64,000 nucleotides of DNA from Massalongia carnosa. Its lineage: Eukaryota. The position numbers were made by a program, and so were the translations under genes. How positions within the stretch are numbered: position 1 is the first letter of the stretch; each line of letters begins with the position of its first letter. The stretch is taken from the NCBI GenBank assembly GCA_965645245.1, contig OZ287076.1, forward strand, positions 1,674,001 through 1,738,000, read 5' to 3'. Positions 1 through 45,675 of the stretch are shown here, piece by piece. The notes below the pieces were generated by a model. It did no database searches. It was not told the DNA's origin and was given only the letters and a program-made list of their open reading frames with translations.

Positions 1-1
1 G

Positions 2-415
2 CATCTTCTTCGGCGCGTGGACGCACCGGGGGCTGCCAGCTCCAACGGAATCATATTTGCCGCCCCACCAACCACCGTTGACACCGCTCCCAGCCCTCCT
101 CAAGCCACACCCACCGCAGATATCATTGCGCCACTTCCATCGCCCCGCATAAACCCTTCGGCTCCGTCCAACACCAACGGTGTCCCTGCCAAAGCGACAG
201 ATTTCGCCCGCGTGGCCGTTCTCTTCATCTTGCAAGAAAAAACCCTCAACACAGCCATTGCGGCCAACAAGAATCTGCAGGAAAAACTCGCCGACTCCAA
301 AACTTGGAACACAAGCGCCGTGTTTGCTGGGGAGGCCGTCTTGGTCGATTTTGGGAAGTGGACCGTGGATCTAGGGAACGGAACGGTTTTTGGGGGAACG
401 GCGGGCAACGGGTAG
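2..415 (+). CDS. 3' part of a Pro/Thr/Ala-rich hypothetical protein, truncated by the window start
   Basis: Open frame from position 2 to TAG at 413-415, GC-rich and coding-like; no recognisable domain. Confidence 0.45.
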   Translation, partial: HLLRRVDAPGAASSNGIIFAAPPTTVDTAPSPPQATPTADIIAPLPSPRINPSAPSNTNGVPAKATDFARVAVLFILQEKTLNTAIAANKNLQEKLADSKTWNTSAVFAGEAVLVDFGKWTVDLGNGTVFGGTAGNG

Positions 416-882
416 CTGTCGGTGTGAGTACGTGTGATTCGCAATTTGATATTCTATATTTTGTATATGTGCCACGACGGATGAACTGGAGCTGGGGGGA
501 TTTGCTGTATATAGACGGGTGTGTACGATTCACCAGGGGTAGACGAGACGAGGGACGTAAAAGAGATGGGTGGAGGTGATTCGGTATCTGTCATATCTAT
601 ATCCTTGTTCTATTTATACTCCAGTTCTTCGTCCCGCAGCATAGCCGCCGCGTTTAGCGTTCAACTAGCATAGCGTAGTTAGTTAGGTATCCGTATCCTT
701 GATGCGCAGGGCCCAAAACCGCTCGTTGTTTGTTATTCCCCCATTTTTTTGTCCCCAGTCTCCTGGTTTCTCTTTCCTCTATCTAATCGACTTTTAACAT
801 GCTTGCTCTTATTTCATACTTGAGCAAACACCGCTTACATGATCTACGTTTCTTATCTTCTTTAATCTTGAGTTTCTAGCTT

Positions 883-914
883 TAGCCCTAGCCCTAGCCC
901 TAGCCCTAGCCCTA
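883..914 (+). repeat. (TAGCCC)5 hexamer microsatellite, telomere-repeat-like variant
   Basis: Reads tagccctagccctagccctagccctagcccta, differing from CCCTAA by one base per unit. Confidence 0.85.
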
Positions 915-1878
915 ATCCTCTCATACAGGTATTGTACACGTAATTAAATATAATCCATCCGTAAACGAGCCATCATATATCTTCAAATCATTGTAGCTGG
1001 TTTCTTTGCAAAACCATCACCCTAAGCCACCTCGTTACGCATACGTTAGTTACACAGCGTGTCCACGAGAAATCTCCTTGACCGCCTAACCACTGTCCTT
1101 CAAGTATCCCACATAACTACCTATCTATTGCCAGTGACGAGGAGGAGGTAGGGATACATGTAATGAGACGGTTAATCCAATCCGAAAACCATTTACCTAT
1201 CTGCCTATCTCTCTATTTATTTATTTCTCGTGCAGTGGACCCTTATTCGGTCTCATAATGAAGGGCTGCATGCATCATACCGAGCAAGCTGCAGGCTACC
1301 ATTGATTAAAACCAGCTAATTAGCAATTTCCTACATATTGGTATCCAGTAACAGGGCCTACCTTTCCCAGATGAGTGAATGCCAAACCCCCTGATCGGTC
1401 AGCCATATAAGAACTTTGCGGCAAGCTTCAACCATACCAGAAAACTTTGGATCATGTCCGCATAACGAAATGCGACTGTGCATCATCAACTCTTGCAGCC
1501 AATAGGTTTCCAACAAGTCAACTAATCCTGCCTCAAGATTCTATGGAAGAACTGCGGTTGGCTGCAAAGCTGTTTGATCTGATTCGGATCACGGCTAGGA
1601 TGAGAGGAACAATCCTTAGCCCTAAATCCTCTTCTTGATACTCTGGTCCTTATCCTTGTTGCATCATACATCCATCACCAAGCTAAAGTGCACTAGCTAT
1701 TCAACGCTAGATCTAACGAATAATGTGGTTTATGTGGGAATTTAAGGAAACTTATCTTCTCAGCTAGTGAGCATTGAGATCTCAACAGAGTTGACCATGC
1801 CACAACTGGATGTTGCGTCAGAAGATTCAGAAGCCCATGACTACCATTAATCTCAAATCCAAAGCTTAGAAGCCAGAT

Positions 1879-2556
1879 TCAGAGCCTACACATCGCAACG
1901 TACATAAGTCTCGTTGCGTCTGTAAACCCCATGTCTCCAATATAGCCCATGTAGCCATTGAAATACTTACCAAAGGCCGCCGGACATACATCCCATATCT
2001 CCCCAGCAAGGTTTCTGAACAAGTAAACTTGCTCCTCGGTGGGAACGTCGGAGAGACACATAGCACAAGCCAACCAAGACTCCTCTAAAGCTTCAAATTG
2101 AGATCTGGTGCGTATGGCTATAGATGCTGGGTTGCGTGCCCAGAGCCCATCGACCGTGCCCAAAGTGGTTGGTTCCGTAAACCTCCAAGGGCAATTAAAC
2201 ACCATCTCCATCATGATATTCATCATCGGAAACCCGTCAGAAGTATCAAACCTCCAAAGATATCCTCCAAGCACAACGGAACCCCCATGACGGACAAAAC
2301 GGAGGACCATGTTTATCAACCCATCGTAAGGGGTGTCAATAAGACAGGGATCTGCAATTATGACTGCCTTGACAATGGGCGGATCAAGAATATTGGAAAT
2401 AGTGAACATAGCTAAAACAAGCTTCTCTAAATCAATCGTTACCTCCAAGACCCAGACCTGAGGCCGGAGCCCATGGAAATAGTTCCTGCTATTTTGTAGT
2501 AGCCCTGGCTCCCTCGAGCTGTGAAGGAGAAGAACAGAGGGATGAATATTTGGCAT
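1879..2556 (-). CDS. Hypothetical fungal protein, 225 aa
   Basis: Uninterrupted ATG-to-TAA ORF with globular composition (KAVIIADP...FVRHGGSVVLGG...CPAAFGKYFNGYMGYIGD). Confidence 0.7.
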   Translation of the reverse strand: MPNIHPSVLLLHSSREPGLLQNSRNYFHGLRPQVWVLEVTIDLEKLVLAMFTISNILDPPIVKAVIIADPCLIDTPYDGLINMVLRFVRHGGSVVLGGYLWRFDTSDGFPMMNIMMEMVFNCPWRFTEPTTLGTVDGLWARNPASIAIRTRSQFEALEESWLACAMCLSDVPTEEQVYLFRNLAGEIWDVCPAAFGKYFNGYMGYIGDMGFTDATRLMYVAMCRL

Positions 2557-3146
2557 GACGGATTACCCAAGGAGTGACTAGACAAGTTTCGAAGGTTGTA
2601 TGCAAGTGGGATTCTTCCACAAGAAGAGAAGAAACATGAAATATGTAGATATCGAAATTCAGATTAACATTGTATCAGTTTGCAGAAGTGTTCCGGACGA
2701 CCTAGGCATGTGCGGTTTCGCAATCAACAAATCAGGTTGGGATTTTGAACAGGGTAAAGAAAATGGTTGGAAATAGTAACAAGTAACTATACAAGCAATC
2801 CTTTGATTATGCGCATCACAAACTCATGAAGGAATCTACATTTTTAGGCACAAATGATCGATAAGAAATTGATCATCCCACAGGATTAGGTTTGACGGAT
2901 GACTCTATGAGACAAAAGCAAGCTTCGAATTGGGGATTCAGGTGACAAAACTCTTTTAGGTGTTCAAACTGCAGAGTGCGGATTGGATTAGATTAGATTA
3001 GATCCATGCAAGTAATGATGTCATTCTCCATTTCAAAGTGAACCATTTTGTTTTGACCAGGGAATCTTTACCCTCGTGGCCCTTTGGCTTCGACGATGTG
3101 AGCCGCCCAGTAAAACACCATTGCCTAGTTCAAACCTAATCAAAGG

Positions 3147-3945
3147 ATGGCTGATCTACAGCAGCCGCCCTTAAACTGGGAAGCTTCAGCTACAACCACT
3201 CATCCCCAGATTTCTACTTCACTTCCTCCAGAGGTCGAAGCTTGCCTCAAGAGCGCTCGATTTGTGAGACGACCCTTGGCCTCTAGCTGTGAAAGAGGTT
3301 GACCTGTTTTCATAGCTTCATCTTGCAACATGCGACAATCTGTTCCCTCATGTTTCCCTAATGAATTACACATACCTTCGCTCTACCCCTTTCGACCCAA
3401 ACCCAGTCATCATTATGACAACGAATCCATCATCAAAAAAGACACTTAACTTGATCAACAATCCTCGTGTTTCGTTACTGGTCCATGATTGGGTCTCACA
3501 TCGCCCACCAACTCGAGCTCCAGATCCAACTCGGGAAGGTTCCCCCCCTCCGCAGGCTACTCGATCGAGCTTGGCTAGCCTTTTGCTCAATATCAATACG
3601 AGCGCACTCAGTAGCATAAGCGCCACTATCAATGGCGAAGCTAGGATTGTCGAGCATGGAAGTGAGGAGGAGAAGTGGTGCAAGGAGAAGCATTTGGAGA
3701 ACAACACGTTCGGTGATCAAGCTCGAGAAGAGCAAGGGTTCTTTGGAGCACCACAAAGTGCTGGTACAAGCGAAGGCGATGGTGGAACCAGTTGTTTTAT
3801 TGAGGGGGAGGAGGTGAGGGTGGTTATAGTCGGAGTTCGGGAAGGAAGAATAGCGGACTGGAAAGGTGGCGTGAAAGATTGGGCCATTGTGTCTCCCGAG
3901 GAAGATGGCCAGAGGGGACGTTATGGAATGACCAATGGCTTTTAA
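3147..3945 (+). CDS. Pyridoxamine 5'-phosphate oxidase-like FMN-binding split-barrel protein; 2 exons (3147-3263, 3316-3945)
   Basis: LPPEVEACLKSARF|LHLATCDNLFPHVSLMNYTY...KKTLNLINNPRVSLLVHDW; GT-AG intron 3264-3315 keeps the frame. Confidence 0.88.
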
Positions 3946-4260
3946 GAGGGTATGACGGTACAAGGCTTATGACTAATGGTGCACTGGATGCTCTGTGGCG
4001 TTCGATAAATGTTTTTCCAGCCACTCGTGCCACTCAGCGGAGTATCTTTGAAGTTAACTAAGCGCCCGAAGCCCGATCCCAGAACGTCATCCCGCATTGT
4101 CGCGTAAACCTAGAACGCCCTTCGCGACTAACCTGAAGTTGGCAGTCGGCATATTTTGAGTATCTTGGAATCATTCAGTTCAGATTCCTTGCTCAACTCG
4201 ATTAGATTCTTGAAGTTTTCTCTGTAAGTTTGAGATTTCCCAATCTGTTGATAATTCAAT

Positions 4261-5863
4261 ATGGTCTACATTCGCCAAAGGAACCTAGCGGGCTTGCATC
4301 CATATAAATATGCTGGAGTCGATCACTCTCTTGTTTCTCGCTACGTCCTGAAGCCGTTTTACAACAATGTGGTCATCAATTGCTTCCCAATTTCGATGGC
4401 GTGAGTCTGATCATACTCTCAATGCCCAACTTTCAATCGTCATAGCTAATCTTTCTTTACACACAGACCCAATGCCGTAAGTCTTTGCCAGAGCCCGCCC
4501 TTTGGCAATTCGCCTAACTGGAGTGTCATTTTAGATTACGTTATCAGGATTCAGTTTCGTGATCATCAACCTCCTGACGTTACTATGGTACAATCCTACC
4601 CTGGACCGAGATATGCCCTCTTGGGTATACGCTTCTTGGGCGATTGGGCTTTTCCTATATCAGACCTTTGATGCGGTGGATGGGACACAAGCGTAGGCTA
4701 GATTGATTGCGAATGGCGAATTAATATGCTAACTTAGTGTCGCAGACGGAGAACGCATCAGAGCGGTCCCTTAGGAGAGCTGTTTGACCACGGTAAGCCA
4801 TAGGGACGATTTTTGATACGTTATGCTGATTAGTTTAAAGGCGTTGACGCCCTCAACACCGTCCTCGAGGTGCTTCTATTTGCTGCCGCAATGAATCTTG
4901 GCCAAAGCTGGAATACGGTTCTTACATTATTTGGAGGTACGTAGGAATCTAGAAATACCCAATATAGTAGCTCATATCTGGAACCAGCTACATTGACCTT
5001 CTATGTTCAGACCTGGGATGAATACTACACCCAAACTCTCATTCTTGGAATCGTTTCAGGTCCAGTGGAGGGCATTCTCACCTTGTGCATTGTGTACGCT
5101 TTCACTGCGGTGAAGGGTGGTGGTAGCTTCTGGCAGCAGTCAATGCTTGAGACATTCGGAATAGCAAAGCACGGCATAATCCCAGACTACATTTACGAGT
5201 TGCCTTTCAATGAGTGGTACATGGTTTACGGAGGAATAGTCCTCGTACTCAACACAGTACAGAGGTAATCATCTTTTTTAACCGGTTCTCAATGTCCTAG
5301 GCAAACTAATATTTGGGTACGCAGCGCCTATCATGTAATGCAGGTCCGCAAGGAACGGAACCAAAGTGTCACGACACCTCTGGCTGGCCTTCTTCCTTTT
5401 TTTGCAACTTGGACTCTCGTACCCTTCTACCTCTATCAACACCCAGTCATCCTTCATCATCATCTGATACCATTTGTCTTCTACGTCGGGCTAATCAACG
5501 CATACTCTGTTGGTCAAATCATTACTGCTCACTTGACCAAATCCCCCGATTTTCCTAATTACAATGTTCTTACCCTACCACTTGGCCTTGCAGTCATTGA
5601 TTCGTTGGGACCAATCCTAGGTGCCTGGCCTAGCGTCCTAGGCAATGGAACATATCAAATTGCCTTTGTATTTTCATGTTTGGGGTTGGCAGTGGGCGTA
5701 TATGGAAGTTTTGTTGTAAGTGAAAAAAAAACCTTCATGTAGGCTGCTAACTAACAGGCGGTAGTTTGATATTATCACGACCATCTGCGACTATCTTGAC
5801 ATTTGGTGCTTGACGATCAAGCATCCCTACAACGAAAAGGACGAGCTGAGAAAGGCAAAATAA
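4261..5863 (+). CDS. EPT1: Choline/ethanolamine phosphotransferase (CDP-alcohol phosphatidyltransferase); about 9 exons
   Basis: N-terminus MVYIRQ..YKYAGVDHSLVSRYVLKPFY; signature DAVDGTQARRT..SGPLGELFDHGVD across exons; C-terminus FDIITTICDYLDIWCLTIKHP; canonical GT-AG introns with CTAAC-like branch sites. Could be the CPT1 paralogue. Confidence 0.93.
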
Positions 5864-8566: not shown

Positions 8567-11500
8567 CAGTGTTCGCAATGGAGTGATTCTTAATGGATAT
8601 CCACTCCATTTAATCCACTCCAATCCACTCCAAAGGTTTTTTTTTTAAATGGAGTCCATCCAATAAGGTTTTAGGCTTAATGGAGTCACTCCAATAAGGA
8701 TTTATCTAATGGAGTGGACTCCATGGAGTCCAATGGATTAGGGCCTAAAAATAGGTGGTGTTTTAGGTATAGCTCCAGGGGCCTTAAAGCTATGGTAATT
8801 CCCACATTTTAAGTGATATTTCACTTGTTTTACTGCTTTTATTCGTGTCAACCTACAAATATCACTTGCTATGGACTGAATTTGCTTCTATTTAAACTAG
8901 AAACCACCAAAATCCGTCCCGAACCGTACTTGCAGTGATGTCTGATATTAGTGACGATACAACTACAACCCGCCCCGACCCTGGCGAGACAGAGTCAGTA
9001 TTTGAGCTTCCTGGAGCATGTGATATCGACGTTCCTGAACGTATTACGCGTGGCAGAAAGCGTACGGTTGGTTCAGCAGAGCTTGGGAATGAAGCTTCAA
9101 GAGTATTGATCCATATCCTTTATTTAATCAAGCTTATATATTAATATATGGCAGAGGTCTCCATCCCAGTCAGCCCTGAGCTTTTCTCGACGTTCCCCTG
9201 CACCCTCCACGACTTCCCAAGCTACGGAGCGTCCCCATATCATCCTGAGCGGCACTATATACTCTGAGAACGACAGGAACGCTCCTGGTAACCATTCCAG
9301 CAGCCCTTCTAGGCCGTCACCTATAACCTCTATTGAAGGCAGGGTTATTGGTGGCCGGTTTTCGTCTCCTACAAGTGGAATAGCTTCAAAGAGAGCTAGA
9401 GCGAGCCGTAGTTGGATATGGGATTGGGGCACCAAGGCAGAGAGGGAGGGCAAGGCCTATTGGGTGTGTAACAAATGTAAAGTACCAGATTTATACTTAT
9501 TTGCCATGTTTGCTATGAAAATTTGTATAGAACTCAGTGTAATTCCGCCCATTTTATATGTACCGAACCATCGAGTTGTCATTTTGACATTTACTATACA
9601 TTTGTCCAATATCTATTTAATTTATATTAACGATTATTAAAGCTAATTAACTACAGGTGTTGCAGACGGTTCTAATACTGAGTATATGATCACAAACGGC
9701 ACTGCTTCATGTGGAGAGCACTTACGAAAGGACCATAATCTTGTTCCACCTAAGGAAGCAGCTGCTAGGGCATCTATCTCTGTTGTTGAACATCTTCAAC
9801 AAGGGGTAGTAGTTGCTCCTTTTAGTCCAGAAGTCTTTCGACAAAAGCTCTTACGATTTCTTTGTATTTGTCATATTCCTTTTGCCATTGTAGAGCAGCG
9901 TGCTTTTCGAGACCTGCTTTTATATTCAAGTCCGTATTTACGAGGCAATGATACACTCCCCAAGTCGGGCAATTCCATTAAAGCTGCACTATTAGAGATA
10001 TTTCTAGCTTGTCAACTTGTATTGATTCAGTTATTAGTGGAAAGCAACTGCCAAGTCCATATATCCTTTGACTTATGGTCGTCTCCTAATAATTTCTCTA
10101 TGCTAGGTCTTTGCTGTCACTTTATTGATCGTTCCTGGCAAGCACGTACAGTGATTCTTGGCATGAAGCGTCTTATTGGACCCCATAGTGGAGAGAATAT
10201 GTCAAAATTAATAGTCAAGGCCCTTGAAGTTTATAAACTAGGGGGTAGGCTCGGCTACTGTGTTTTGGATAATGCCGGTGATAATGACACTTGCTTGAGA
10301 GCAGTCGAGGAACATCTCCTTTTGCAGGGAGTTAGGTGGGACGCTGATACTCACCGACTACGTTGTTTCGGCCATATCGTTAATCTCGTGGCAACTGCAT
10401 TCTTAGAGAACAAACCTACGAAGCAAGCGCGTCAACGACTCCCAGGGGAGCCCAAGGCAGTCTGGAAACGTCCAATAGATGCTATTACGAAGCTTCATGT
10501 GATTATTGTCTTTATAATGGCCACCGCTCAAAGGATCGAGCAGTTTGAAGGGATTAATAAGACGATTCAAGACCCTCTCTTGCATCCAATTAAAGAGCAA
10601 ATCACTAGATGGTTTTCAACTCTTAATATGCTTCGACGGGCCATTCAAATCAAAGACTCTCTTGATCTATTCGTCCATCGTAACTCTGAGCAATCATTTA
10701 CTGAGAAGACTCTTTTTGATTCGCAAATGACGGTTGACGATTGGAACTACGCCAAGGAAGTGATTGCTTTTATGGAACCACTCGAAGAGCTTATGATGAG
10801 TTTACAAGGAAGAGAGATGTCTGGTATATTATATAAGCTTTAAATAACTCGATAATCACTAAGCTTTTAATAGGAAATAATGGTTACGCTCACCAAGTGC
10901 TCCCTTCATATGATTTAATAAAAAAGGGGATGGAAGAGCAGCTATTTGGCTTTGAGCTTGATGAAGTCGATCAGTCAAACCCACAGGAACTAGCTAGTAA
11001 ACGACTGGAACTGAACATTATTAACGCCATGCAAAAGCTAGAGAAATACCGTCAACTACTCACTTCCCCTATTTATTTAGTGGCCGTCGTCCTGATGCCC
11101 TGGTATAAGTGGACTTATTTTGAGGATAGTATGAGTGCTAGTGACCTTGCTCAAGCTCGTACGAAGGTCCAAAAACTTTGGCAAGACTTATATGCAAATA
11201 TAGAGGTTGCTGAAGATGATACACCGTCACCTGGAAGTCAAAATAATAAGGTATATTAACACTTATTAATATAAAAACACGGCTAACTATATTTGTAGCA
11301 CGCTAAGCCCTCCCTTTTGAAGGAACACCTTAAAAGGAGTACAAACAAAGCTAAATCCACTGTCAGAGATGAATATAGACGGTACTGTAATACAGAACCA
11401 GTTGATGAAGATGGTTGCGGGTTCTCTGGCCACTTAGAATGGTGGAAAGCTCACGAGCCTCACTATCCTAGACTAGCTCAAATGGCCAGGGATATATTCT

Positions 11501-19259: not shown

Positions 19260-20150
19260 TGTTGGAATACTCGCTTAGCCCCATTAGATCTAGCTCAGCC
19301 CTGCAGGCTGCCATGACTGCTATAAGCAGTCACCTCCGTAGTAATTTCAACATGATGCCGTCAACTGTTTATTTAACAGGTTATGAGTCCCGGGTTTGTG
19401 CTTTGCGCCCCTCCGACGGCATCCTTCATGCATAGACTACGTACTATCATGTCGTATCAAGAAGATGATGAGGTGAAAGTTCAGACGTGGAAAGCGCGAA
19501 AACGAAGCGGAAACGACATCGAAAGGGATGAGAAACGAAGCGGAAACGAAGCGGAAACGTCATCGAAAGTGGTGTACGTACGAAACGTGCTGAGGAGGAC
19601 ATCTACAATGGGCGGTGCCTCGAAGACTTCACATCTTGCATTACTGGTCAGATCAGCAAGGGGAGATAAAAGCCCTGCGATCAGGCCACCAACGTCAATG
19701 GTCTACGGGAAAATGTCTAACAGAGACATCGAGAAAAGCCCTGCTCAGGCCATCAACAAAACACGTCCATAGTACTCTTCCCATCCACCCATACACTCAC
19801 AAAAGCTACGTTTCGAGAAATGGTTATGGGTTTAATGAGGCTACAAAGCAGGACAACCAAAGACATAAGAAAGAACTACGTGCTTAGGGAAAATGGAGTC
19901 AGAGGGAGCTAGATTCGTTCCGCAAGGGGAGCGAATCGGACACAGCTGGATGAATCACTTCGCAAGGGGAGTGATAAAAGCTGGATAGTTTCAATTTTGG
20001 AGGCGAAAGGGGAGCCACGCTCGAAGGGGAGTGTTGGAATACTCGCTTAGCCCCATTAGATCTGGCTCAGCCCTGCAGGCTGCCATGACTGCTATAAGCA
20101 GTCACCTCCGTAGTAATTTCAACATTATGCCGTCAACTGTTTATTTAACA
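19260..20150 (+). mobile_element. Miniature non-autonomous copia-derived LTR retroelement (TRIM-like), 891 bp
   Basis: 119-bp LTRs TG...CA at 19260-19378 and 20032-20150 with 2 mismatches; 5-bp TSD ATTCT; PBS-like GGTTATGAGTCC directly after the 5' LTR; PPT GAAGGGGAG before the 3' LTR. Confidence 0.93.
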
Positions 20151-22280
20151 ATTCTCATCATGGCTCATATCGAGATGCTTTTGCACCAAGATCGTTCCCA
20201 TAACGCAATTGGCTGATTAAAAAAATAAGCCAAGCCAGCTCATCTTATTTTATTTGGCTCAGCGACTAAGCGCTAAGATCTTGTTTGAGCAAATTCCCAT
20301 CAAGGGGCTGCGGCTGGAACAGATTCGTTCTATAGAAAATTCCGGATTCTTTTGTTTTGCCTTTATTTCCCCTCTGAACGTAAAATGACAAACTGTTTCC
20401 CATCCTTGCACAACATGTTAGTGATATTTTCACAATATCTCTGCTTGTTCCTTTCTTTTCCTTTTTAGATGTAAAACACATATGCCGCTTGGCAGAGATG
20501 AAATCTGGATATCATGCAATTACTTCACAGTTAGCCTTTCACTAGCTCTTATTCTTTCTCTAGAGAGGCGAGGTAGAAACCGCCATTGGCCCAGCTCAAG
20601 TAAGTTGTTCATCGTACATGTTTATGCGTAATCTGACTGTCATCTGACATAATTTATACCTGTGCTAATCCGATGATGAGTTAGACAACGTTGATGATGA
20701 TGATGATGATGATGATGTATTCATACTCCGATATGTCACCGGCCGTAGGCCGGCCCATGCGGGCAAAGCTATCTAAGTTATGTTACATGGAAACCCTTTT
20801 TCAGGTGTAAAAACCATATCCCTTGATACCTGTCCGATGTGACACCGGGTCAACGTCCGACAGGAGACGCAGAGCGAAAATCATGTGAGAACTGTGACGC
20901 CTTGTGAGATAAGAAGGAAAAGAGAAGTAAAACAACTGTAAATTATACAATAGTGTAGATGCCAGTGAGAATTGGGTCAGTAGACCTGTTTTCATTAACC
21001 AAGTAGTTAATATCTTTAGAGTTTTTGATGTTTCGGTCAGCTGTTGATAGTTATTCGTGCCAGCGGCGCAAAATATCTGTTCTCTATTGTCAATAAGTCT
21101 ACAGAACATAATTACGTGTTCTGGAGTTTGTCTGTGTTAGCCACATGGGCAGGCCGGTGAGGTGACGGCGGGGACCCGTCGCTGGTAGAGGAAGTCAGCT
21201 AGACCGATCTTACCGGTGCGGATCTGTGTTGTCAGGGCGCTTTCTGCCTTTTTTAGCAGCGTGTGTATTTCCAGTCGTTTTTTGCTCAGTGGGACTGATT
21301 GCACTATGGAGGGTTCGGTGACGCGATTTTGATATGCGCTCCACGAGTCGTTCCAGACTTTCAGCTGTCGTGCTTTAATTGTCTGCATTTGTTTTTGACG
21401 AGCCAACGCTGCTACGGAGACTTCGCGGAGATGCGCTGGGGAGGGGTCGGACCATGGTGGGTGTGCTTTGGGTGGTTGAACGATTTTTGCGTCGATCAGT
21501 AGGTTTTTGGCCCAGGTGTGCTTCAGCTCTCCCGGAGTGGGTTTTTGAAGGCGTTTGCGACCTGCCTTGCCTTGAAGTTTGTTAACTATTTTGCTGCATG
21601 CGGAAGAAATGACCTTCGATTGACCTCCGGCTCGGAGTCGATGTCTGGCCTGCGCCTGTAGCGTGTCGAGGTGTACATCTATGGGTGCTATGTATGTCTC
21701 TGCTTCAAGAACTGGAATGGGAGTAGCTTTAAAGGCACCGGCTATGGTGTGAAGGCAGTTGTTTTGCATAACGGAGAGCTTGCTCGTTGACGTTTTTGAC
21801 TTTTTGACTTCTTTGGGCATGTGCCATACGGTTGACCCGTATGTCATGACCGGACGCACTACGGCGCTGTAAACTTGCCTTGCTTTGGTGAAGGTGGCAC
21901 CCCAAGTCGATGTGGAGATTTTTGTCAATGCCATGGATTGTTTGACCATTTTCTTTTGCGTTTTGCGAACGTGCGGTCCCCATTTCAATTTGGTGTCAAT
22001 TTGCAAGCCTAAGGCCCCGTTCGGTAACCTCCTTATTGTCAATAAGGAGCCTCCTTCTTGAAAATATGGAACCTCCTTATAATGAAAAAGGCCTTCCGTT
22101 CGGTTCGGCCTTCTCCTTATTTTTAAGGAGTCTCCTTCGCGGCAAGTTCTATAATTGGTATATTGCAAAGGGTCTGCAGGGATTGTTGCAGGGGGCCAAA
22201 AAAAGGTGTTCGCGAGGTCCTTTTTTTATTAAGGAGGGTTCTATTTGCCGCTGTATTCGACGATTGTATGTCTTTTAAAT

Positions 22281-23450
22281 ATGGAACACTACTTGCAGCG
22301 ACGATCGCAAACAGCGACGGTTATCAATTTAATCTTGATGAGAATTATTCCCAATCTAATTCTGACTACTCAGCATGAGTCGAATAGAGGCAAAGAATAT
22401 ACGACGAGTTTACTTACTGATCATCATCGTCGCATTTTTAACATGCTACGAATGTGTCTCGAGATCTTTGATGCGCTATTGGACTGATTATTAAAAAATA
22501 CTAATTTAGTATCTACTAGATGGATTGATGCGACTAAAAAGGTAACTATGTTTCTCGTCTACGTCGGTCAAGGTGTTTCGTATCGTTTGATATCTGAATG
22601 GTTCGGGCACAGTCTCGATACCGTCAGTAGAGTCTTTAAAGAGGTCTTGTATGCAATTATCACGCTGCATAAACATACTGTAAAGATGCCTCAGTCGAAT
22701 ACTTCATTGTCGTCTCATATAGCTGGAAATCCAAAATATTATCCCTTCTTCAAGGATTGTATTGGGGCGTTGGATGGTTCTCATATATCAGCTTTTGTTC
22801 CATTATCGAAACAGGCCGCTTGGAGGAATCGCAAAGGCTTTATATCTCAAAATGTATTAGCTGCGTGCGATATGGATATGTATTTCGTTTATATACTTGC
22901 TGGATGGGAGGGAACTGCTCATGATGGAAGAGTCTTGAATGATGCCATCAACAAAGGATTTATCGCCCCGTCAGGCAAATACTATCTCGCCGACGCTGGA
23001 TACTCGAACACTCTCATGACTTTGGTCCCCTATCGGGGCGTCAGATATCATCTCAAAGAACAGGCACAGCAGGCATCGAAACCACAGACCAAGCAAGAGC
23101 TGTTTAATCTTCGTCATTCATCGCTAAGAAATGTCATTGAACGACTGTTTGGCGTCATAAAACGAAGATTTCGAATACTGCAAACTGCTCCGGAGCATCC
23201 TATGCGCACACAAGTAGGACTGATATATGCGTTGACGGCGTTGAATAACTTGATTCATCATCATAGTAATGGCATATCTGATGACATAGACAACGAGATA
23301 ACGTCTGAAGAAGCATCAAACGACGTCGAAGATAAAGATGAAGAAGATGAAAGCTCAAATCAGCTTGAGAAAGATAGTAAATTCATAAACGCCAAACGAG
23401 AGGATATTGCTACTCAAATGTGGATGCAATATAGACAACATATAGATTAG
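22281..23450 (+). pseudogene. Harbinger (DDE_Tnp_4/HARBI1-like) transposase with one in-frame TGA at 22485-22487
   Basis: FKDCIGALDGSHI, QNVLAACD, GWEGTAHD, YYLADAGY, FNLRHSSLRNVIERLFG; upstream frame from ATG 22281 is interrupted by a single TGA. Confidence 0.9.
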
Positions 23451-23554
23451 AGCGAAATCCCCATGGAATAGATCAGATTTCAGTGATAACTTGATGCATT
23501 GAGTCGAGAAAGTGCTTCATATGTAGACGTTATTCAACTACTTAAAATAAAATC

Positions 23555-24490
23555 CTATGAATTCTTCTTTATTTCTTCCTGGAATTTTTCCAACTGCCTT
23601 TCCACCCATCGACGTCTGAATTTTGAACTCGTCAAACTTAGAAAGATACGAGCTTTCGTCTCGTCTTCAAACACCTCCGTCCGAATCTGATCCTCCATAT
23701 CCAGATCCTCAAACGCTGGAAAGAACACGCCCAAAGCTCGCTCTATTGGGGTCTCAACATTCTTATCTTTCAATACTTGTGATGTCTGCTGCTCGTTCGA
23801 GGTTGATAGAAAATTGATCGCCTCAGCAAGATGCTCAGAGCCGGTCTTTCTGATTCGTTTGAGACCTTCTGATGGGCCTGATGCAGAAGCGGTTCCAGCA
23901 AGTTTTCTGAGAGAGGGTACCGACGACGCGGCAGATAACGACTGAGAAATGGGGTTGGAAGACTGTGAGAATGACTGTTCTTCATCATACAAGTTATCGA
24001 CAGCTGCTAATCGAAGTCGTGGATCCAGGGCGTCTTCCTCCTCATCCAACATATCTTTATCTTCGCCTTCATCAAAATCATTTACATCTACAGCTTCCTC
24101 GCCAGTAGCCAGAACGTCAAAGAACAGCTTGTTCAACAAAGCCTCATATCTAATTGGTTTTGCGGAGGTTCGAAACTCCTTGGCCTTGGGATGTTTGTCT
24201 AGATATCGATCCCATACCTCGTCGGGTGCGGTGACAGCATTGTTATGTGGATCTCTACCGAAACCAGATTGGCTGGCTAGATGATACCAAGTTTTGTACT
24301 TGATCTTGAAAGCATCATGCTTATTCTTCAACTGATTAATTGATGCGATGATGTTGAGTCGAGTTTTCATGGCCATTTCTACAGCAGTTCAGGCATCTCT
24401 TTTATATCCTGAGTCGGCTCGCAACCCCTTACCCACCTCCTCAACAAGAGTCTCAAAGAGAGTCAAAGAGGATCTCCTCCATTAAGTAAG
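23555..24490 (-). pseudogene. Harbinger Myb/SANT-like DNA-binding protein with a premature stop near 24390
   Basis: LVEEVGKGLRADSGYKRDA*TAV..QLKNK....K..YKTW...SQSGFGRD....VTAPDEVWDRYL..HP. Confidence 0.85.
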
Positions 24491-24979
24491 ACTTGTCAAT
24501 AGCTTCTTATTGTAGCCGCGAATAAGACGCTATAAACGCACGGACACCAGCTTATTCAGGGGTGCAAAAAGGAGCAGTCTTAATGTTACCGAACAGCCCC
24601 TAAGACTCTAATGTCCGTTTTTGGTTCAATTTCGGTGCTTGCAATGTTGATAGATGCAGCCATATTGAATCTTTTGGGATTTCTAGACAAGTGAATGAGT
24701 TCGTACTTCGTCGGAGCGAATAGAGATCCGTGTCGGGAAGCCCACTTTTCGCATTGTCTGTGTATTGACTCCAGAGTCTTGCAATTCTCTTCGGTGCTTT
24801 TTCCGTATGCCAAAATGTTGGCATCGTCTACAAATCCTATGGCACTTGTGTTTGTGCCTGGTCGCTCACATATTTCCAATAGGTCTGCATTATAGAATAG
24901 ATAAAGGATGGATGAGAGAGGGGAGCCCTGTGGTATACCAGTTCTCACCGCGAATCGTCCGGTCGCTTTTCGATCTAAG

Positions 24980-25692
24980 AATGATAAAATAGAGTTGACA
25001 TCTCCTTCGTGAAGTCTCTATCCCAGTTTCGTTCATCTCACTGGTGCGTTTTACGGCCCAAGACTATTGATGAATTCTACGATTGGGGTGAACGACGTCC
25101 CTTTCGCCCAGGTCAAACCCAGTTTACTCCTTAAGCATATATCAAGGGCGAGTCTAGCCGTAGCACATGCGCCGGCGAACCGACGGGGTCTCGTTACGAG
25201 CGAGATAGACATTCCCTGCTCTATATACACCGACATGCGCATACTGTCCTATCGGGCTATGCAGACGGTCTCCGTACGGTGGCTGCCATTGCATACCACG
25301 CCTCACGGGTTTTTTACGCCCACTTCGCGTTATTCATAAAGGTCTCCCGTTTATGAACCGACCATGTCTCGCGGGGATTTCGGCCACTTTGCTCCTGACC
25401 AGGCAGTATAGCACCGATTTTCCGTCCCTACTAACTAAAAGGAGTCGAGGACAACTCGGAGGGGTGCTCGTTTGAAATTCGTCTATTAGCTCAGGGCCTA
25501 GACTGTTATCAATTAACGGGTTCCTCGTATATTGCCCTCTTCTTGTCCCAAGGGTGTCCTATTTGATGACTAGGTTGCTCCACCATCCCCGGTGCGACCC
25601 CGGTTCGGGCCGTGTTGCTCACAGTAGCCATTAATCGGATGGTTTTCATAACCCAAATCCCTTGTATCGTGCAGGGTGTGACCCCACACTAT
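24980..25692 (-). ncRNA. Candidate large structured non-coding RNA, unclassified
   Basis: Many nested helices on the minus strand with UUCG and GNRA loops (cgucgg-UUCG-ccggcg, uucauaaa-c-gg-GAGA-cc-uuuaugaa, cc-GAUA-gg), G-U pairs and no credible ORF. Confidence 0.5.
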
Positions 25693-26153
25693 GTGTCTAT
25701 ATGTTTTATTTCTTTCAGCCGGAGGGCTCCGTGTTGTAGACGAAGGAGACCCGTGTGATAGACATAGCTGACCCGTGTCGTACGTCTCTAGCTCTCAGCC
25801 GATGACTGCATGAAAGGACTTGAACCTTTAAGAGTATGATCGAACGTTGTTAACCAGGTCTATGAAAATCTTATTAACGAGATCTTTGAGAACAATATTA
25901 ACGAAGTTCCGCTGAACTCTTTTCATTCGTTTTGTGATCCATCGAAGTCTACCCGTGTCAAATCCACACCATGCCCGTGTCAAAATGCAATATTTTCAGC
26001 TGATGACTGCTAGAAAGGACTTGAACCTCTAAAAATATGTACTCCGATATTAACGGGGTGCAGATCTGCCTTAACGAGCCCCCGCAGAAACCCCTTCACA
26101 GGGACGTGTTATTGATTTGTGACTGTGTATTGTGACTGTGTGCTTTATGACTA

Positions 26154-28090
26154 ATCGTGTCAAGAAACTAGTAATCGAAGCGAGTCGCCTACTAGTGTCC
26201 GACACCTCAGTGACGCATACAGCTCAGTGACGCACTTTTCCCATTTTACCTACTATTTTACATACAATTTGTGGACAACAATGGTTATGTAAAATTTAAT
26301 TGACTATGACGCTGGTAAAACAGCTTTGCTTGCCTGGGCATAGATCGAGCGATTGCTCTATACTTTCGATCCAGGGCCAATTGCTTCTTTTCAGCAGCTA
26401 GTACGGCACGTTCATAGGCCTGCTTGGTCTTTTCCACCTCATTCTGAGTGCGTTTTGTAACCTTCGCCCGTACATCTCGAACGGTTATGACTCCTCCCTT
26501 CTGGGCCACCTTTCCATCAAGTTTTCGTCGTGCTGTCTTCGCGATGGACAACATCTGATTGGCCCGAAGGTCTCGCTCTGAAATCTGACGTGCATGAGCA
26601 CTGGAGATGGAGCCTTTCACAAATCGTTCCACATGACAGTCCCACTCGGCATTCAAAACATTGTACTTCTTCAGGCTTTTCCGAAGCTTATTTCCATATT
26701 CAACAACTTCTTTGGCTGTGGAAGGTGTTCTGGCGAGCAATGGAGCTGATGGAAGTGGGGGCGGGGTAGCAGGCCTACGGGTCTGAATAGCCTCTACTTT
26801 GCGGAGTACCACTTCTGGATTATAAGGCACCAGACCCGTGTTTCTGAATGAAGCTAGTATGGTAGTTGACGTGAATGTTTGATTTCGCATGTTCTGAAAA
26901 ATCGACAGAAAGTCGAGTTTATCGAAATCAGACCCTCCACCCCGCATCAGTTGATCAATAGCTTCGGAATGATAATGTTTGAAAGGCTGAAAACATTCTA
27001 CATCCAATGGCTGAGTGAGATGTGTGGAATGAGGTGGAAGACGAAACAATTCGATTTTGTTTCGTTTGGCATAGGTAAAAAACTCGAATGTCATATGAGA
27101 TCCATATCCATCCATGATGAGCATGCGCCATGCACCTACCTGCCCCTTTCGACTGTGTTTGTCGAAATGTTTCAACCAATCGAGAGCTAAATCATCATTG
27201 GAATAGGCGGTAGGACTGGTGGTCAGGAGAATATCATCATCCAAGTCATTGTGTTGGGCCCATTTCTCCAGCACCCATGCACCAGCGATTATGATCATGG
27301 GGGGAATATCACGCCCCCCTACACTAATACATTCACACGAGGTGATATATTCTCTATTGTCCGAGTCCGTCAACAGCAAAGACTTTCTAGAATGAGTTGA
27401 AACAACCCAATGAGCTCGCCCACAGCCAATTCGAAAGCCTGTCTCGTCCATGTTCCAAATATCCTCATCCGCTACTCCAAGAGCCTCGCGAGCAGCCCGA
27501 TATGTCTCGAAATATTCCAATATATCATCGACGTTGTGCGCATGTTTTCGCTCGACGGCTAGTGGTTTTTATTTGCGTTTGAGGAATTGAGGATGTCGAG
27601 TCAGAAAACGTTTGGTCCAGGCATTGCTGACGTGAGGAGAAGGAGTGAAAACGTCTGAATGAGCCTCTTGAAGTAGATAAGTTGCTGCCGCCCGAATCAT
27701 TGGAAGTCTGGCAGATTGTTCGGCTTGATCGAGCATTTTAATATATTCACAAAGAGCTAATTCTTGTTCATCAGACAAAGCTTTGTTGGGGGCAGAACGA
27801 CCAATTTTCGAACCACCTCCATTAAGTCTTCTCTGTAGATTACGAATGTCCACGTCGTACTCCAAAGCTACCGCGCGCACACTTCGAAAATCACCCGTGT
27901 CCCACGCGTCAATAGCTTCAAGAATTCGATTCTCCTTACTGAAAGATAAACTGGACATGATGTGGTGGAGTGATTACGTGGTGAAGAGTGGTAGGTAAAA
28001 TGGGAAAAGTGCGTCACTGAGCTGTATGCGTCACTGAGGTGTCGGACACTAGTAGGCGACTCGCTTCGATTACTAGTTTCTTGACACGAT
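26154..28090 (-). mobile_element. Second Fot1/pogo transposon, 1937 bp, nested in the chimera's 5' module
   Basis: TA TSD; about 100-bp TIRs starting ATCGTGTCAAGAAACTAGTAATCG. Confidence 0.95.
26285..27958 (-). pseudogene. Fot1/pogo transposase with one in-frame stop (TAA at 27569-27571, probably from CAA)
   Basis: HTH region, then KRK*KPLAVERK; WNMDETGFRIG, MDGYGSH, HSTHLTQPLDV motifs. Confidence 0.92.
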
Positions 28091-28106
28091 TATGTGCTTT
28101 GTGATA

Positions 28107-28565
28107 GTAATTCGGCTAAGGCGAAAGGTAATGCCGGGACCGAGTGGAGGCAGGCCGCGAAACAGCCGACGAAGGCTGAAGGCCGTGGATAGCCGAAGGA
28201 CCGAGTGGAGGCAGGCCGCGAACAGCCAACAAAGGCCGAAGGACAAAGGAGGATGATGTCCAAAATAGTTGGACAAACAAGGGAGAGAAAGGGCATAAAT
28301 AGGTGGCCTTTTGGCACTCTTCTCCTCATCATCACCAATGATTCGGAGTTCAGCACCAAAAGGTCTTTTGCCCACCCACCCACTCCCTGAATCAGCCGCA
28401 TAGGTAGATGGAGTTTTTCCCCTCACTGCTGCCAAAACAAAGCCATTATAGGAGGGGCCCTCAGCAAAACTGAGCGCCAGCAGGGCAGCAGCGAGGGGAG
28501 AGTTGCCCAAATATAGATAGAAATTATGTATATGTTCAGCTGACACGATGGAGCCCGCGAATTAC
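28107..28565 (+). mobile_element. MITE- or solo-LTR-like repeat, copy 1 (459 bp)
   Basis: 8-bp terminal inverted repeat GTAATTCG/CGAATTAC with TA flanks; about 61-bp internal tandem duplication; near-identical inverted copy at 40808-41205. Confidence 0.85.
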
Positions 28566-29081
28566 TATGTGCTTTGTGACTGTGCTTTGTAACTGTGTGC
28601 TTTGTGTCTGTGTGATTTATGACTATGTGTTTTGTGACTCTGTGTTTTCCTCGATTTTATTTAACAGGCCGGGCCTGTTAAATGAGATATTGTTATTCCG
28701 CTCCGTGATGGAGTTTTCTTGAGGTGGCTTCGCCCCGGTGCCTGTACGCGTTCTGTTGATTCCAGCTGATGACTGCATGGGAGACTTGAACTCTCAGGAG
28801 CTAGAACGCGTGTCAACCGTGCCCGGGTGGGGGGTGATGCGGCTCCTTTGGTCCACATCTTCTTCCAGCTGATGACTGCATGAAGGGACTTGAACCCTTA
28901 GAAGCATGGTGCAGGGACACGCGCATGCGAACCCCCCGGCGTTGGCCTTCGAATCCTCTTCCGTACGTACGTCTGCGACGCGTGTGAGCGCGTTAAATTA
29001 GCATTGTTTTGATGCGAAGAGATGGGAGCAAATCTATGTTTGACGGTTGCCCCACGATGAGGCCTTTGGCGTCTCCGTGGT

Positions 29082-29184
29082 GAGGACCGATGGTGTAGAA
29101 GGAGGAGGACCGATGGTGTAGAAGGAGGAGGACCGATGGTGTAGAAGGAGGAGGACCGATGGTGTAGAAGGAGGAGGACAGATC
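29082..29184. repeat. 23-bp tandem repeat GAGGACCGATGGTGTAGAAGGAG x4 plus a partial copy
   Basis: Directly readable; abuts the right TSD of the chimera. Confidence 0.95.
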
Positions 29185-29549
29185 GTTAGACAGCGTTAAT
29201 GCTTACTATTTTAAAGAAAGTGAAGGCCGGTCTAACAAAGGCCGGCCAGAGCGGTCGCTGCGCTGCGCTGCTTCAAACCCCCGATTTCAAAAAAAAAGTG
29301 GATATGTATATGGTGGTCCCTAACTGCTTCTGATGTAAACATCATTACATTCCCCATCAAGGAGATCAAGGTGCTGACGTGGAACTAGCCCGGGGCAGAC
29401 TATAGGCGTTGAAGAACTGTTCTTTTCCTGTTAAACTTGCTTTTAACTGATTTGCAGCTGAAACCTGTAGGATCTTCCTTTATTTCGATTAGCTGTTCTG
29501 GAAGTAAAAGCTAAAATTCTCATGTGGCTAGGAATATTCCTTGTACGTT

Positions 29550-31250
29550 GCCGCCCATCTGCGAAGCTTAGAGAGAAGTTGCTGTCCCGCCACCTTCATA
29601 CAAGGTTTTTAAGATCTTGGATGTTAAAAATATCAATTCGCCGAGGCTAGGGGTATCTGAATGAAGTGCTATCCGAACCAAATCGCTGTCAATATAGCTC
29701 CGCAAACAGAACCACAACTCTGGGCCGCATATAATATTATAGGTGGTAGCAGGCTGCTCAAGTCTTTCACTACCGTGGGGGTTGGATAGCCGGAGCAGCG
29801 ATTCCGATGAAATAGCGCTGGCACCAGACAAAACGTTCTGAGCTCCCGATAAATATTCCTGACTCATTCACCACTGTTAAAATTATTAAAAGCAAGTATA
29901 AGGTTGGGAGAAAGGAACGGGTCGGAACCATGAGGTTTACGCCGAAGATTTCAGCTAGCGGACGTTAAGCAATGCAAACTTAGAAACTTGGCGGTCAGCA
30001 AACATAGCTCTATCCGAAAGATGAGCTTATTTTTAGAGAGAGCGTATATATCAAGAGACAAACGAGGAAAATACATAGAAAGGGGAAATCTACCTTGAAA
30101 GGGGTTTATCAAGGTTCGAAATGCGAAGATGGATCACAAAGCCAATGACTTTCTGACAGAAAAAGGACGAGACCACTGGTACTTAACACACTCGAAGAAC
30201 TTTGAATGCTCAAAATCCCAGCCTCGGCTGAAATGGAAAACAGATTTGGTAATTTTGTCACTTCATGCCAGAATCTGACGTCTCAAGTAAAATTTAAGAG
30301 AATACATACTATCTCTTGTACTATAACATCAGAAATCCAAGAAAACCTAGTCGTCAACGCTTGATTAAAATCGAAAACCAAGTTCACGGTTTCTGGAATT
30401 GAGCCGGAGAACAAAATGCGATATATTCGAGGCACGAGATATCTCTTGCTATGCCTTAACCGAAAGCCTCTCCTCAAAGAACTGGGGAAAAGGTTATCTG
30501 TCAGTCCTGTATAGCGGTTCGTCAATCCTTGCCAGGAACTAGAAAATTCCAAGAATCTGTCAATTTGACTGAATATTTGGAACCTGAAACGGGGGTTATC
30601 GCTCCTATGCACTTCAAGTTCCGGATAGGGAGGCAGGATACTCCATGTTATTTCATCAGAGACAGTTTTACCAGAAGATGGAATCCCAAACTTTTTCTAG
30701 TTGCCGACCGAAGCTGAGGACGGGAAAGATAAGCCCCGAAACCTTTTTTTGCTACAGTGGAAGAATTCGAGTTCAATAGATTTCTTTGGCGGTTTTCAAG
30801 GCTTCTAAGCTTGGCAAGCTGGTACGGATGGAAAAATTTGTTATGCAAGCCCAAAGACAACGATATATTTTAGCACCCTGATCCACCCCTTGCTTCACTG
30901 TCCTTGCAGCGATTTGAAACCACAACAATAGCCCACTTGGCCTCATTGAATAATTTCATCGGCGATGCTGATACCTGTCGGTTCCCGTATGAGGGAGCAC
31001 ACGAGTGGGCACCATCTTTGTTTTCACTATGCGCTAGGCGCATTGGAGGGAGAACAGGCTAAAGATGTTATTGTGTGGCTCATTAACTGATATAGAATCA
31101 AGACACAAAGGACGTTCGGGAGCTCTGTAGCCGAGCATAGGATGTATGGAGACATTTCTGAGGATTCCAAGCAGCGAAAACAAGTCCAATTTGAAGAAAA
31201 CTTGGGTGATTGGATAGCATTTATAAATCTCTTTAGTAGCTACTAGATAT
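29550..31250 (-). pseudogene. Decayed DUF3723-like gene (Starship-associated family)
   Basis: Collinear fragments in shifting frames: CFRCLESSEMSPYI, YGNRQVSA..LFNEAKWAIVVV, FQIFSQI, LFPSSLRRGFRLRHSKRYL, LLRLSNPHGSE..GPELW..DTPSLGEL. The order matches DUF3723 motifs as I recall them. Confidence 0.55.
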
Positions 31251-40609: not shown

Positions 40610-40807
40610 ACTTCATTAGTTCCCAGCAAGCTGGTGCGTTATGATGAAATTATCATACAATATTCTGAATCAAATTCATTGTTGATATTTGAAAAAATCC
40701 GCTTGAAACCATGCAATCATGCAAATGCAATTTTGAAATTTTCCAATGTGGTTTTGCGTCAAACAAATCCAACGAGTTCCCATATTCTTTACCCAAGAAG
40801 TGGAGTA

Positions 40808-41205
40808 GTAATTCGCGGGCTCCATCGTGTCAGCTGAACATATACATAATTTCTATCTATGTTTGGGCAACTCTCCCCTCGCTGCTGCCCTGCTGGCGCT
40901 CAGTTTTGCTGAGGGCCCCTCCTATAATGGCTTTGTTTTGGCAGCAGTGAGGGGAAAAACTCCATCTACCTATGCGTCTGATTCAGGGAGTGGGTGGGTG
41001 GGCAAAAGACCTTTTGGTGCTGAACTCCGAATCATTGGTGATGATGAGGAGAAGAGTGCCCAAAGGCCACCTATTTATGCCCTTTCTCTCCCTTGTTTGT
41101 CCAACTATTTTGGCCATCATCCTCCTTTGTCCTTCGGCCTTTGTTGGCTGTTCGCGGCCTGCCTCCACTCGGTCCCGGCATTACCTTTCGCCTTAGCCGA
41201 ATTAC
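40808..41205 (-). mobile_element. MITE- or solo-LTR-like repeat, copy 2 (398 bp), inverted relative to 28107-28565
   Basis: Near-identical reverse complement of copy 1 without the internal duplication; flanks TA and TC. Confidence 0.85.
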
Positions 41206-41456
41206 TCTTATACAGCCCAGGGCGAGACCTTGGATCACTTCTATCTCTGGGCGTCTAACCGATTTGAGAAAGCATAAAGAAAGCGCTGAAGGAGGATAAA
41301 CTGGGTGGTGTGCGTCTATGAATCAATCGTACTGTCACTGGGCCATCATATGAAAAAGAAATGAATGATCAGGTCATCGTCGTCGTCAAGTTGCTACGTG
41401 CGCACTGACTAGCTGACTAGATGAAGAGATGAAGAGATAAACTGAACAGAAGAAGT

Positions 41457-45632: not shown

Positions 45633-45675
45633 TAGTAGTCGACTCGCTTCGATTACTACTTTCTTGACACGATTA
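45633..45675 (+). repeat. Orphan TIR tip of the 26154-28090 Fot1 family
   Basis: tagtagtcgactcgcttcgattactactttcttgacacgatTA matches 28050-28092 with 2 mismatches. Confidence 0.85.

Follow-up and report, generated by a model that had tools for sequence, protein, structure and literature searches.

The closest described system for a fungal LINE (long interspersed nuclear element) with a long non-coding partner is MINE of Magnaporthe grisea, in which, according to the sections of PMC2104539 that describe it, a full-length, 1.1-kb non-coding sequence named WEIRD is fused to MGL fragments of 230-5461 nt. Those sections report 28 different fusion sites and flanking direct repeats of 10-20 bp, and ascribe the chimeras to template switching by the LINE reverse transcriptase (RT) (PMC2104539). 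They also state that no solo copy of WEIRD was found and that it has no similarity outside M. grisea; U6-L1 chimeras of mammals are mentioned there as template-switch products, and among the fungal chimeric LINEs covered, a long non-coding 5' partner is documented only as MINE (PMC2104539). Here we describe a unit of similar architecture in a window of 64,000 nt from Massalongia carnosa (GCA_965645245.1, contig OZ287076.1, positions 1,674,001-1,738,000, forward strand). On the minus strand of this window, between 29184 and 20693, a non-coding module of about 1.81 kb is joined to a 5'-truncated LINE, and we consider it probable, though well short of certain, that the whole is a bipartite, MINE-like template-switch chimera produced in one target-primed reverse transcription event.

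A sequence-only reading of the window had reported a 13-bp direct repeat beside the LINE tail and again 8.5 kb away, and this repeat withstood analysis. The 13-mer GTTAGACA[A/G]CGTT occurs at only two places in the window, 20680-20692 beside the LINE tail (GTTAGACAACGTT) and 29185-29197 at the 5' end of the module (GTTAGACAGCGTT), both on the plus strand, and the two copies differ once, by A/G at position 9 (12/13 identical). The pattern GTTAGACARCGTT, with at most one mismatch allowed, has exactly two matches in the window, a number reached by 0 of 100 dinucleotide-preserving shuffles (mean 0.11). Contigs of four public sequencing runs (X1, X2, X3 and X5) were placed on 19500-30500 for depth and joints, the best 15 of 109 joints and the best 24 of 1361 loose ends being considered; as these are De Bruijn contigs, depth is given for regions and cannot be reported for one single junction. 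Single-copy contigs stop at 20682 in all four runs, and one single-copy contig, from X2, resumes at 29194. The flanks 20234-20600 and 29409-30500 stand at single-copy depth (about 0.8k-1.6k in X1), while the interval between the two repeat copies is hundreds of times deeper in each of the four runs. The 13-bp repeat sits on both repeat/unique borders and is therefore treated as a real target-site duplication (TSD). Just left of the single-copy flank, 19500-20233 is a separate high-copy repeat (X1 depth 260k-406k).

Next to the TSD copy at 20680-20692 lies an array of (TGA/GAT)8.7 (20692-20717), equivalent to (TCA)n in minus-strand reading, and the copy at 29185-29197 stands at a tandem array of 4.8 copies of 23 bp, called at 29082-29190. 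Read on the minus strand, the interval between them begins at 29184 with the 4.8 23-bp repeats and finishes at 20693 with (TCA)8.7. There is no duplication at the internal junction at 24975, so that the lone TSD encloses the whole composite and not each part, in agreement with the sequence-only reading. A contig joint corresponding to the empty site (20692 to 29198) was not present among the best 15 of the 109 joints.

Three inserts interrupt the unit, and their nested position, proposed earlier, is confirmed. A Harbinger/PIF DNA transposon at 22013-24600 (plus strand; DDE_Tnp_4, E = 1e-21, and Myb_DNA-bind_3) is bordered by a TAA duplication (22010-22012 and 24601-24603) and splits one leucine codon of the second open reading frame (ORF2) of the LINE. 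A Fot1/pogo-type DNA transposon at 26152-28092 (minus strand; DDE_1 and HTH_Tnp_Tc5) has 102-bp terminal inverted repeats (TIRs) that are 100% identical and a TA duplication. A miniature inverted-repeat transposable element (MITE) of about 460 bp with TAATTCG..CGAATTA ends (about 28108-28566) lies 15 nt from the Fot1 insert; both are inside the minisatellite of the module, of which a 15-nt remnant (28093-28107, minus strand) stands between them. Contigs of other copies skip these inserts: the joint 22007 to 24599, found in all four runs, represents LINE copies free of Harbinger, and the joint 26128 to 28581 in run X1 skips both Fot1 and the MITE. The Harbinger, Fot1/pogo and MITE inserts are therefore later arrivals, and the halves of the module are contiguous elsewhere. 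Once they are removed, LINE sequence amounts to 1.69 kb and module sequence to about 1.81 kb, close to the earlier estimates of 1.7 and 1.8 kb, with the junction now refined to 24975/24974.

The LINE part (1321 + 371 = 1.69 kb) comprises the 3' untranslated region (UTR) and ORF2 from about amino acid (aa) 640. On the minus strand it consists of an RT part at 24604-24974, starting at about aa 640 of 1120 (RVT_1; ..RKATGRFAVRTGIPQGSP..FVDD..; 87% identity to the relative P0001), a C-terminal part of ORF2 at 20948-22012 (P0001 aa 423-777, 85% identity), the 3' UTR at 20718-20947, between the end of ORF2 homology (20948) and the tail and at high depth in the four runs, and the (TCA)n tail at 20693-20717 (period 3, 8.7 copies, 100% matches). 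The minus-strand ORF 24586-25017 matches positions 101-202 of the 205 in the RVT_1 profile, and ORF2 relatives align with 24978-24598 and 22012-20939, corresponding to aa 638-1120 of the 1120-aa P0004. The closest ORF2 family is formed by P0001 and its 1096-aa cluster member P0038 (85-87% identity). The 3' part is thus a 5'-truncated LINE ending in the LINE's own (TCA)8.7 tail, and in the contig data another genomic copy of the LINE 3' end likewise has a GATGATGATGAT tail. An in-frame stop at 21137-21139 in the C-terminal part of ORF2 (..PACPCG*HRQ.., where relatives have W) makes the fragment defective beyond its truncation.

For the wider LINE family, seven full-length ORF2s were aligned and metagenome contigs were scanned, which matched 599 stretches, 462 of them encoding relatives; 80 LINE loci were kept. 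Full-length ORF2 relatives have an endonuclease and an RT (PF03372/PF14529 and PF00078), and ORF1s with CCHC knuckles occur in 20 of the 29 loci with complete ORF2. It is through these full-length relatives that the LINE is placed among the non-long-terminal-repeat (non-LTR) retrotransposons with an apurinic/apyrimidinic endonuclease (APE), the window copy keeping only the C-terminal half of the RT. The element is putatively of the fungal Tad1-like kind.

The module, which is 1177 + 15 + 617 nt long without inserts (24975-26151, 28093-28107 and 28567-29184), is fused directly to the LINE on the same strand. Its 3' two-thirds (24975-26151, minus strand, 3' end at 24975) hold two hairpin motifs and part of a 13-15-bp minisatellite; its 5' third (28567-29184, minus strand) holds the minisatellite at 28564-28648, two further hairpin motifs and the 23-bp repeats (4.8 copies, 29082-29184). 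The longest sense-strand ORF of the module is 95 aa. The sequence-only reading had called the 5' part non-coding and non-LINE, perhaps an undescribed fungal RNA family, and the searches likewise recovered no LINE coding sequence and no known RNA family in it (tblastn with ORF1 and ORF2, E > 0.04; nothing from Rfam or ARAGORN). No LINE homology was found in the module by tblastn with ORF2 relatives (E > 1), and the ORF1s of 20 related LINEs showed no similarity to it, the best match, at E 0.04, not being collinear; weak ORF1-like matches at 25206-25108 (E 0.04-0.075) were set aside for the same want of collinearity. ARAGORN found 0 tRNA genes in the window, and the Rfam scan gave nothing above threshold. 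A 134-codon frame of the module (with one stop as X) had four matches among 1.84 billion protein representatives. Three of these are short spurious ORFs (67-80 aa, 78-92% identity) encoded by other copies of the module, in ENA assemblies where the LINE is present as well, and the fourth is an unrelated bacterial repeat protein. Since other module copies yielded only spurious ORFs of 67-80 aa, the module is non-coding there too.

The depth of the module in X1 is 218k-465k, compared with 334k-705k for the LINE and 0.8k-1.6k for the flanks, and the same pattern was observed in all four runs. With a depth near that of the LINE and hundreds of times that of the flanks, the module is therefore a high-copy repeat and not a single-copy cellular gene. 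An exact scan of genome contigs with a module 24-mer returned 0 matches. In most of the other module copies an additional T follows 25026 (by depth, 8048/8048 in X2, 849/941 in X3, 136/136 in X5 and 36k/116k in X1); as these shares differ, module subfamilies differ between runs labelled as the same organism.

Among the 80 LINE loci, module-like DNA is present in exactly one, L012, where it lies on the same strand directly before LINE ORF1 and ORF2, in an element that ends in (TAAT)7. Module positions 318-1045 are collinear with L012 4242-5010 (transition-tolerant local score 220, against a maximum of 33 in 40 shuffles), the reverse-complement control of this alignment giving nothing, and module positions 1122-1175 correspond to L012 5106-5160 with 31 identities and 17 transitions over 55 columns, a score reached by 0 of 200 shuffles. 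In all, the 3' two-thirds of the module are collinear with L012 4242-5160. The best plain BLAST block between the two is 72% over 209 nt (E = 6e-24). No tRNA (ARAGORN, 0) and no Rfam match above threshold was found in the L012 module. The LINE of L012 belongs to a family other than that of the window, its ORF2 having as best match P0017, which is 42% identical to P0004.

Homology of the L012 ORF1 to other ORF1s begins only at 5162, and the junction at 5161/5162 is abrupt and lies inside ORF1. Another copy of the LINE of L012, P0033, was found on a 95.9-kb contig with the L012 ORF1 core as query; its aa 82-170 are 95.5% identical to L012 5162-5428, and its aa 1-81, which have no counterpart in L012, align with the N-terminal part of ORF1 in 13 of 20 relatives. 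The ORF1s of the 20 related loci have about 200-280 residues before the conserved core, with an N-terminus conserved between lineages (E 1e-5 to 1e-12). P0033 runs on as a normal ORF1 where L012 switches, and L012 is therefore also a module joined to a 5'-truncated LINE. An interim reading, in which the module was the LINE's own 1.8-kb 5' UTR and the window copy a simple internal deletion, was dropped because L012 itself is without the ORF1 N-terminus, as P0033 shows. The odd N-termini of P0040 and P0044 proved not to be module-derived. In L012, 3988-4345 is a 183-bp tandem duplication (2.0 copies, 93% matches) that bears a hairpin. The L012 element is rich in TAG/TAA stops and embedded in DNA of 13-24% GC (1-3200 and 9600-10091), a state that looks like repeat-induced point mutation.

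The two loci share the end of the module and differ in where the LINE begins. The canonical ORF2 reading at the junction region is ..NSFLSDRSTTLAINRKVTGRF.., and the P0001/P0038 family reads ..NSFLSDRSTTLAINRKVTGRFAV.., while the window at the same place reads ..NSILSFLDRKATGRFAV..; secure LINE homology therefore begins at RK.TGRF, at about 24972-24974. LINE identity is abrupt there, 87% to P0001 from RKATGRF on, and the g at 24975 still belongs to the module. Neither a tail nor a duplication marks the point of fusion. In both loci the homologous base at which the module stops is the same, within 1 nt, with ..TTCTTAG followed by ATCGAAAAG in the window and ..TCCTTG followed by GTGGCG in L012. 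The LINE breakpoint, by comparison, lies at about aa 640 of ORF2 in the window and in the middle of ORF1 in L012, against a module end equal to ±1 nt in these two loci. Furthermore, two X5 contigs follow the module to 24975 and then depart from the window sequence; one of them (618 nt, depth 128 of 133 in its bin) continues 85 nt past 24975, and this continuation is without the initial GT. A reading of the X5 loose end as the start of ORF1 ('AAS' against 'VAAEG') was too weak to use, the contigs agreeing at 0.67. The junction-spanning 54-aa frame found no candidate among 5.8 billion proteins.

In addition, the module carries a motif of about 45 nt four times on its sense strand (25795-25838, 25996-26039, 28760-28801 and 28863-28908, minus strand), and the motif recurs three times in L012, at about 4067, 4250 and 4586 (within about 4040-4100, 4223-4285 and 4560-4620); it was found in 0 of the 79 other LINE loci. 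The motif core, GGTTCAAGTCC, has a 5-bp stem and a 7-nt loop, TTCAAGT, and we take it to have the shape and sequence of a tRNA T-arm and an RNA polymerase III (Pol III) B box. Directly after the core stands CAGTCATCAGCTG, with invariant GCAGTCA.C.GCTG, and the sequence downstream of the core across the window and L012 copies is GCAGTCATCAGCTG. In the seven copies, 91% of cells pair and three of five stem pairs have changes on both sides; 8-10 of 500 shuffles equal the observed pairing values, and a control slid by +1 is 80% paired. Because shuffles reach these values and the slide control is nearly as good, the support for the hairpin is modest. No A box or complete tRNA was found beside it by ARAGORN on the window and L012. 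A strict hairpin pattern had 0 matches in metagenome contigs, the pattern being too strict, as L012 differs from it by 3 bases, and a looser one had 0 matches in genome contigs and 0 in viral contigs. Among the papers listed for LINE 5' regions with B-box or tRNA-like elements, and for transposable elements of lichens, nothing was directly relevant.

A module end that is apparently fixed across the two loci, LINE parts that differ in position and family, and a single TSD correspond to the signature of MINE, and a bipartite chimera is therefore favoured for 20693-29184. In the proposed course of events, the LINE enzyme would start on LINE RNA at the (TCA)n tail and copy 1.69 kb, to about codon 640 of ORF2; it would then move to the 3' end of a different RNA, the non-coding module of about 1.8 kb, and copy this as far as the 23-bp repeats at its 5' end. 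The 13-bp TSD would arise during second-strand synthesis, and Harbinger, Fot1/pogo and the MITE would have inserted afterwards. The template switch, and a free module transcript ending at 24975, are what we infer from this arrangement. The window copy may be the primary chimera itself, or may have been retrotransposed from an older chimera or chimeric master. In this explanation the module, which is non-coding and high in copy number, is a discrete unit that does not belong to the LINE and whose 3' end would be fixed; it has been seen only fused to LINE 3' fragments. Of the earlier proposal that a LINE had captured a non-coding RNA, the chimera is partly supported, and the single capture of a cellular long non-coding RNA is disfavoured, the module being high-copy at LINE-like abundance; it is better described as an abundant, conserved non-coding repeat. 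Going further, the module may be a free-living parasite of LINEs, one of a family of long non-coding RNAs that is conserved in lichen-associated ascomycetes, lacks its own LINE-derived tail and travels as a 5' passenger only, an idea we regard as tentative and somewhat doubtful. Such a parasite would draw the LINE RT onto its defined 3' end, which would give it LINE-like copy numbers and partners in at least two LINE families that are unrelated to each other. The functional core would be its three or four conserved T-arm/B-box-like hairpins, which and might act by tRNA mimicry for entry into or stability of the ribonucleoprotein, or by TFIIIC binding that shields the promoter.

Several observations weigh against the chimera. 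No free-standing module or source gene was seen, the 80 loci having been picked by LINE ORF2; the evidence for variable partners comes from one foreign locus, L012, which has no clear TSD, only ambiguous 8-11-mers in AT-rich flanks. A module depth similar to LINE depth would also fit a LINE family of mostly full-length copies, and the module, with its 5' tandem repeats and minisatellite, looks like a transposon UTR. At the module end, a frame is in register with the LINE ORF in both loci, and the X5 continuation, a 30-nt consensus of two contigs agreeing at 0.67, could be the start of a LINE ORF1. In a rival explanation the unit is a LINE with an internal deletion: the module would be the normal long 5' UTR of this LINE lineage, and about 2.8 kb, made up of ORF1 and codons 1-640 of ORF2, would have been lost by an intramolecular RT jump or a later DNA deletion, L012 being a second, independent deletion. 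It accounts for a module upstream of the LINE on the same strand in both known loci, for module and LINE of L012 forming one 6.4-kb island of about 50% GC within flanks of 13-24% GC, for the similar depths of module and LINE, for tandem repeats at the 5' end that resemble LINE promoter monomers, together with a minisatellite, and for the dominant X5 contig (128 of 133) continuing 85 nt past 24975 into one sequence, possibly ORF1. However, it needs two independent deletions, in families 42% alike in ORF2, that start at the same module base within 1 nt, and neither in the window copy nor in the variant with the extra T does an open frame starting at an ATG run across 24975. A module placed as 5' UTR directly before a complete ORF1 was looked for among the 80 LINE loci and not found, and the module is in 0 of the 29 loci with complete ORF2, whose 5' regions are short, ORF1 starting within about 50-500 nt of the 5' end. 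The full-length LINE with the module as 5' UTR, which the sequence-only reading had set as the case against itself, thus did not appear, and the sole locus with a module relative (1 of 80) is itself truncated in ORF1. In addition, a non-coding similarity of 72% over 209 nt beside an ORF2 identity of 42% (aa) would be unusual for vertically inherited LINE UTRs. We therefore regard internal deletion as unlikely, without dismissing it.

Two further explanations concern how module and LINE came to adjoin. If the 13-bp repeat were a coincidence, a module-type repeat and a 5'-truncated LINE could be two abutting insertions or the result of a DNA rearrangement, and the mismatch between the TSD copies (A/G, position 9) and the setting in a nest of transposons would be natural. 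A separately inserted LINE should, however, have its own duplication at 24975, but what follows its tail corresponds to the sequence found beyond the module, at the far side of the unit; 0 of 100 shuffled windows had two matches, both copies lie within a few bases of repeat/unique borders, and L012 has the same module end joined to a LINE. Alternatively, a module repeat already in place might be the target, LINEs of this clade inserting site-specifically at its 3' end in the manner of Tx1L in Tx1D or of R-elements in rDNA. In keeping with this, the window and L012 share the module position at which the LINE starts, and X5 contigs break there. This would predict a duplicate of the module end after the LINE tail, but the duplicate observed there is of unique DNA beyond the module 5' end; the two parts therefore arrived as one. 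Both explanations are contradicted by where the duplication lies; site-specific insertion is accordingly very improbable, and coincidence hardly credible.

The favoured chimera resembles MINE, as the latter is described, in having a complete non-coding 5' unit (about 1-2 kb) and a LINE that is 5'-truncated to a length that varies, here between the two loci compared, the parts being fused directly on the same strand, with one direct repeat round the whole (10-20 bp in MINE, 13 bp in the window); like WEIRD in that description, the module has so far been met only fused to LINE. It differs in its host, which is probably a lichen-associated ascomycete, judging by one sequencing run labelled lichen metagenome, in its LINE family, with a (TCA)n tail, and, unlike WEIRD, the module is 1.8 kb long with 5' tandem repeats, a minisatellite and four T-arm-like hairpins, is present in very high copy, and has a homologue in a second organism on a second LINE family. 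The likeness is one of architecture by description. Chimeras of small nuclear RNAs with L1 have a full-length small RNA copy 5' of a 5'-truncated LINE within one TSD and are ascribed to RT template switching. In those chimeras the 5' partner is a cellular RNA that is known and abundant and has an evident source gene, whereas the module is a long repeat for which no source gene was found. Spliced integrated L1 elements have intact 5' and 3' ends in one TSD and lack the middle, and the window unit likewise has both ends in one TSD; internally deleted LINEs need their own 5' UTR as 5' part, which was not found in the 80 LINE loci, and the breakpoint shared by two families speaks against them. Short interspersed nuclear elements (SINEs) and other non-autonomous elements with a LINE-derived 3' end join a non-coding head to a LINE tail and are in principle mobilisable in trans. 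Unlike a SINE, the unit has a far longer head of 1.8 kb (tRNA-derived SINEs having a tRNA-like head with A and B boxes and a total length below about 600 bp), with no tRNA, 5S or 7SL gene and, of tRNA-like features, only the B-box/T-arm-like hairpin; T-runs in the module would terminate Pol III transcription, and in place of a short tail the LINE part comprises 1.7-4.4 kb of ORF sequence.

Elsewhere in the data, the MITE has a second window copy at 40806-41219, 98.9% identical over 370 bp (40806-41175). Joints 22411/22415 to 24491 within Harbinger (about 2.08 kb missing) were present in all four runs, and internally deleted, MITE-like Harbinger derivatives are therefore also in the genomes. 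At 45633-45675, 43 bp match (95%) the outer end of the inverted repeat of Fot1/pogo and probably represent another Fot1-type element or a solo end. Weak tblastn matches of LINE ORF2 relatives at about 1108-2476 on the minus strand (E 0.02-0.9) suggest an old, degenerate LINE remnant.

If internal deletion were the right explanation, the unit would be an ordinary defective LINE with an unusually long, conserved 5' UTR. What the window offers is an abundant 5' partner that has a homologue beside a second LINE family in a second organism and that carries a conserved internal motif. This makes the question left by WEIRD, whether such partners are cellular RNAs, LINE UTRs or a separate class of RNA hitchhikers, directly testable.

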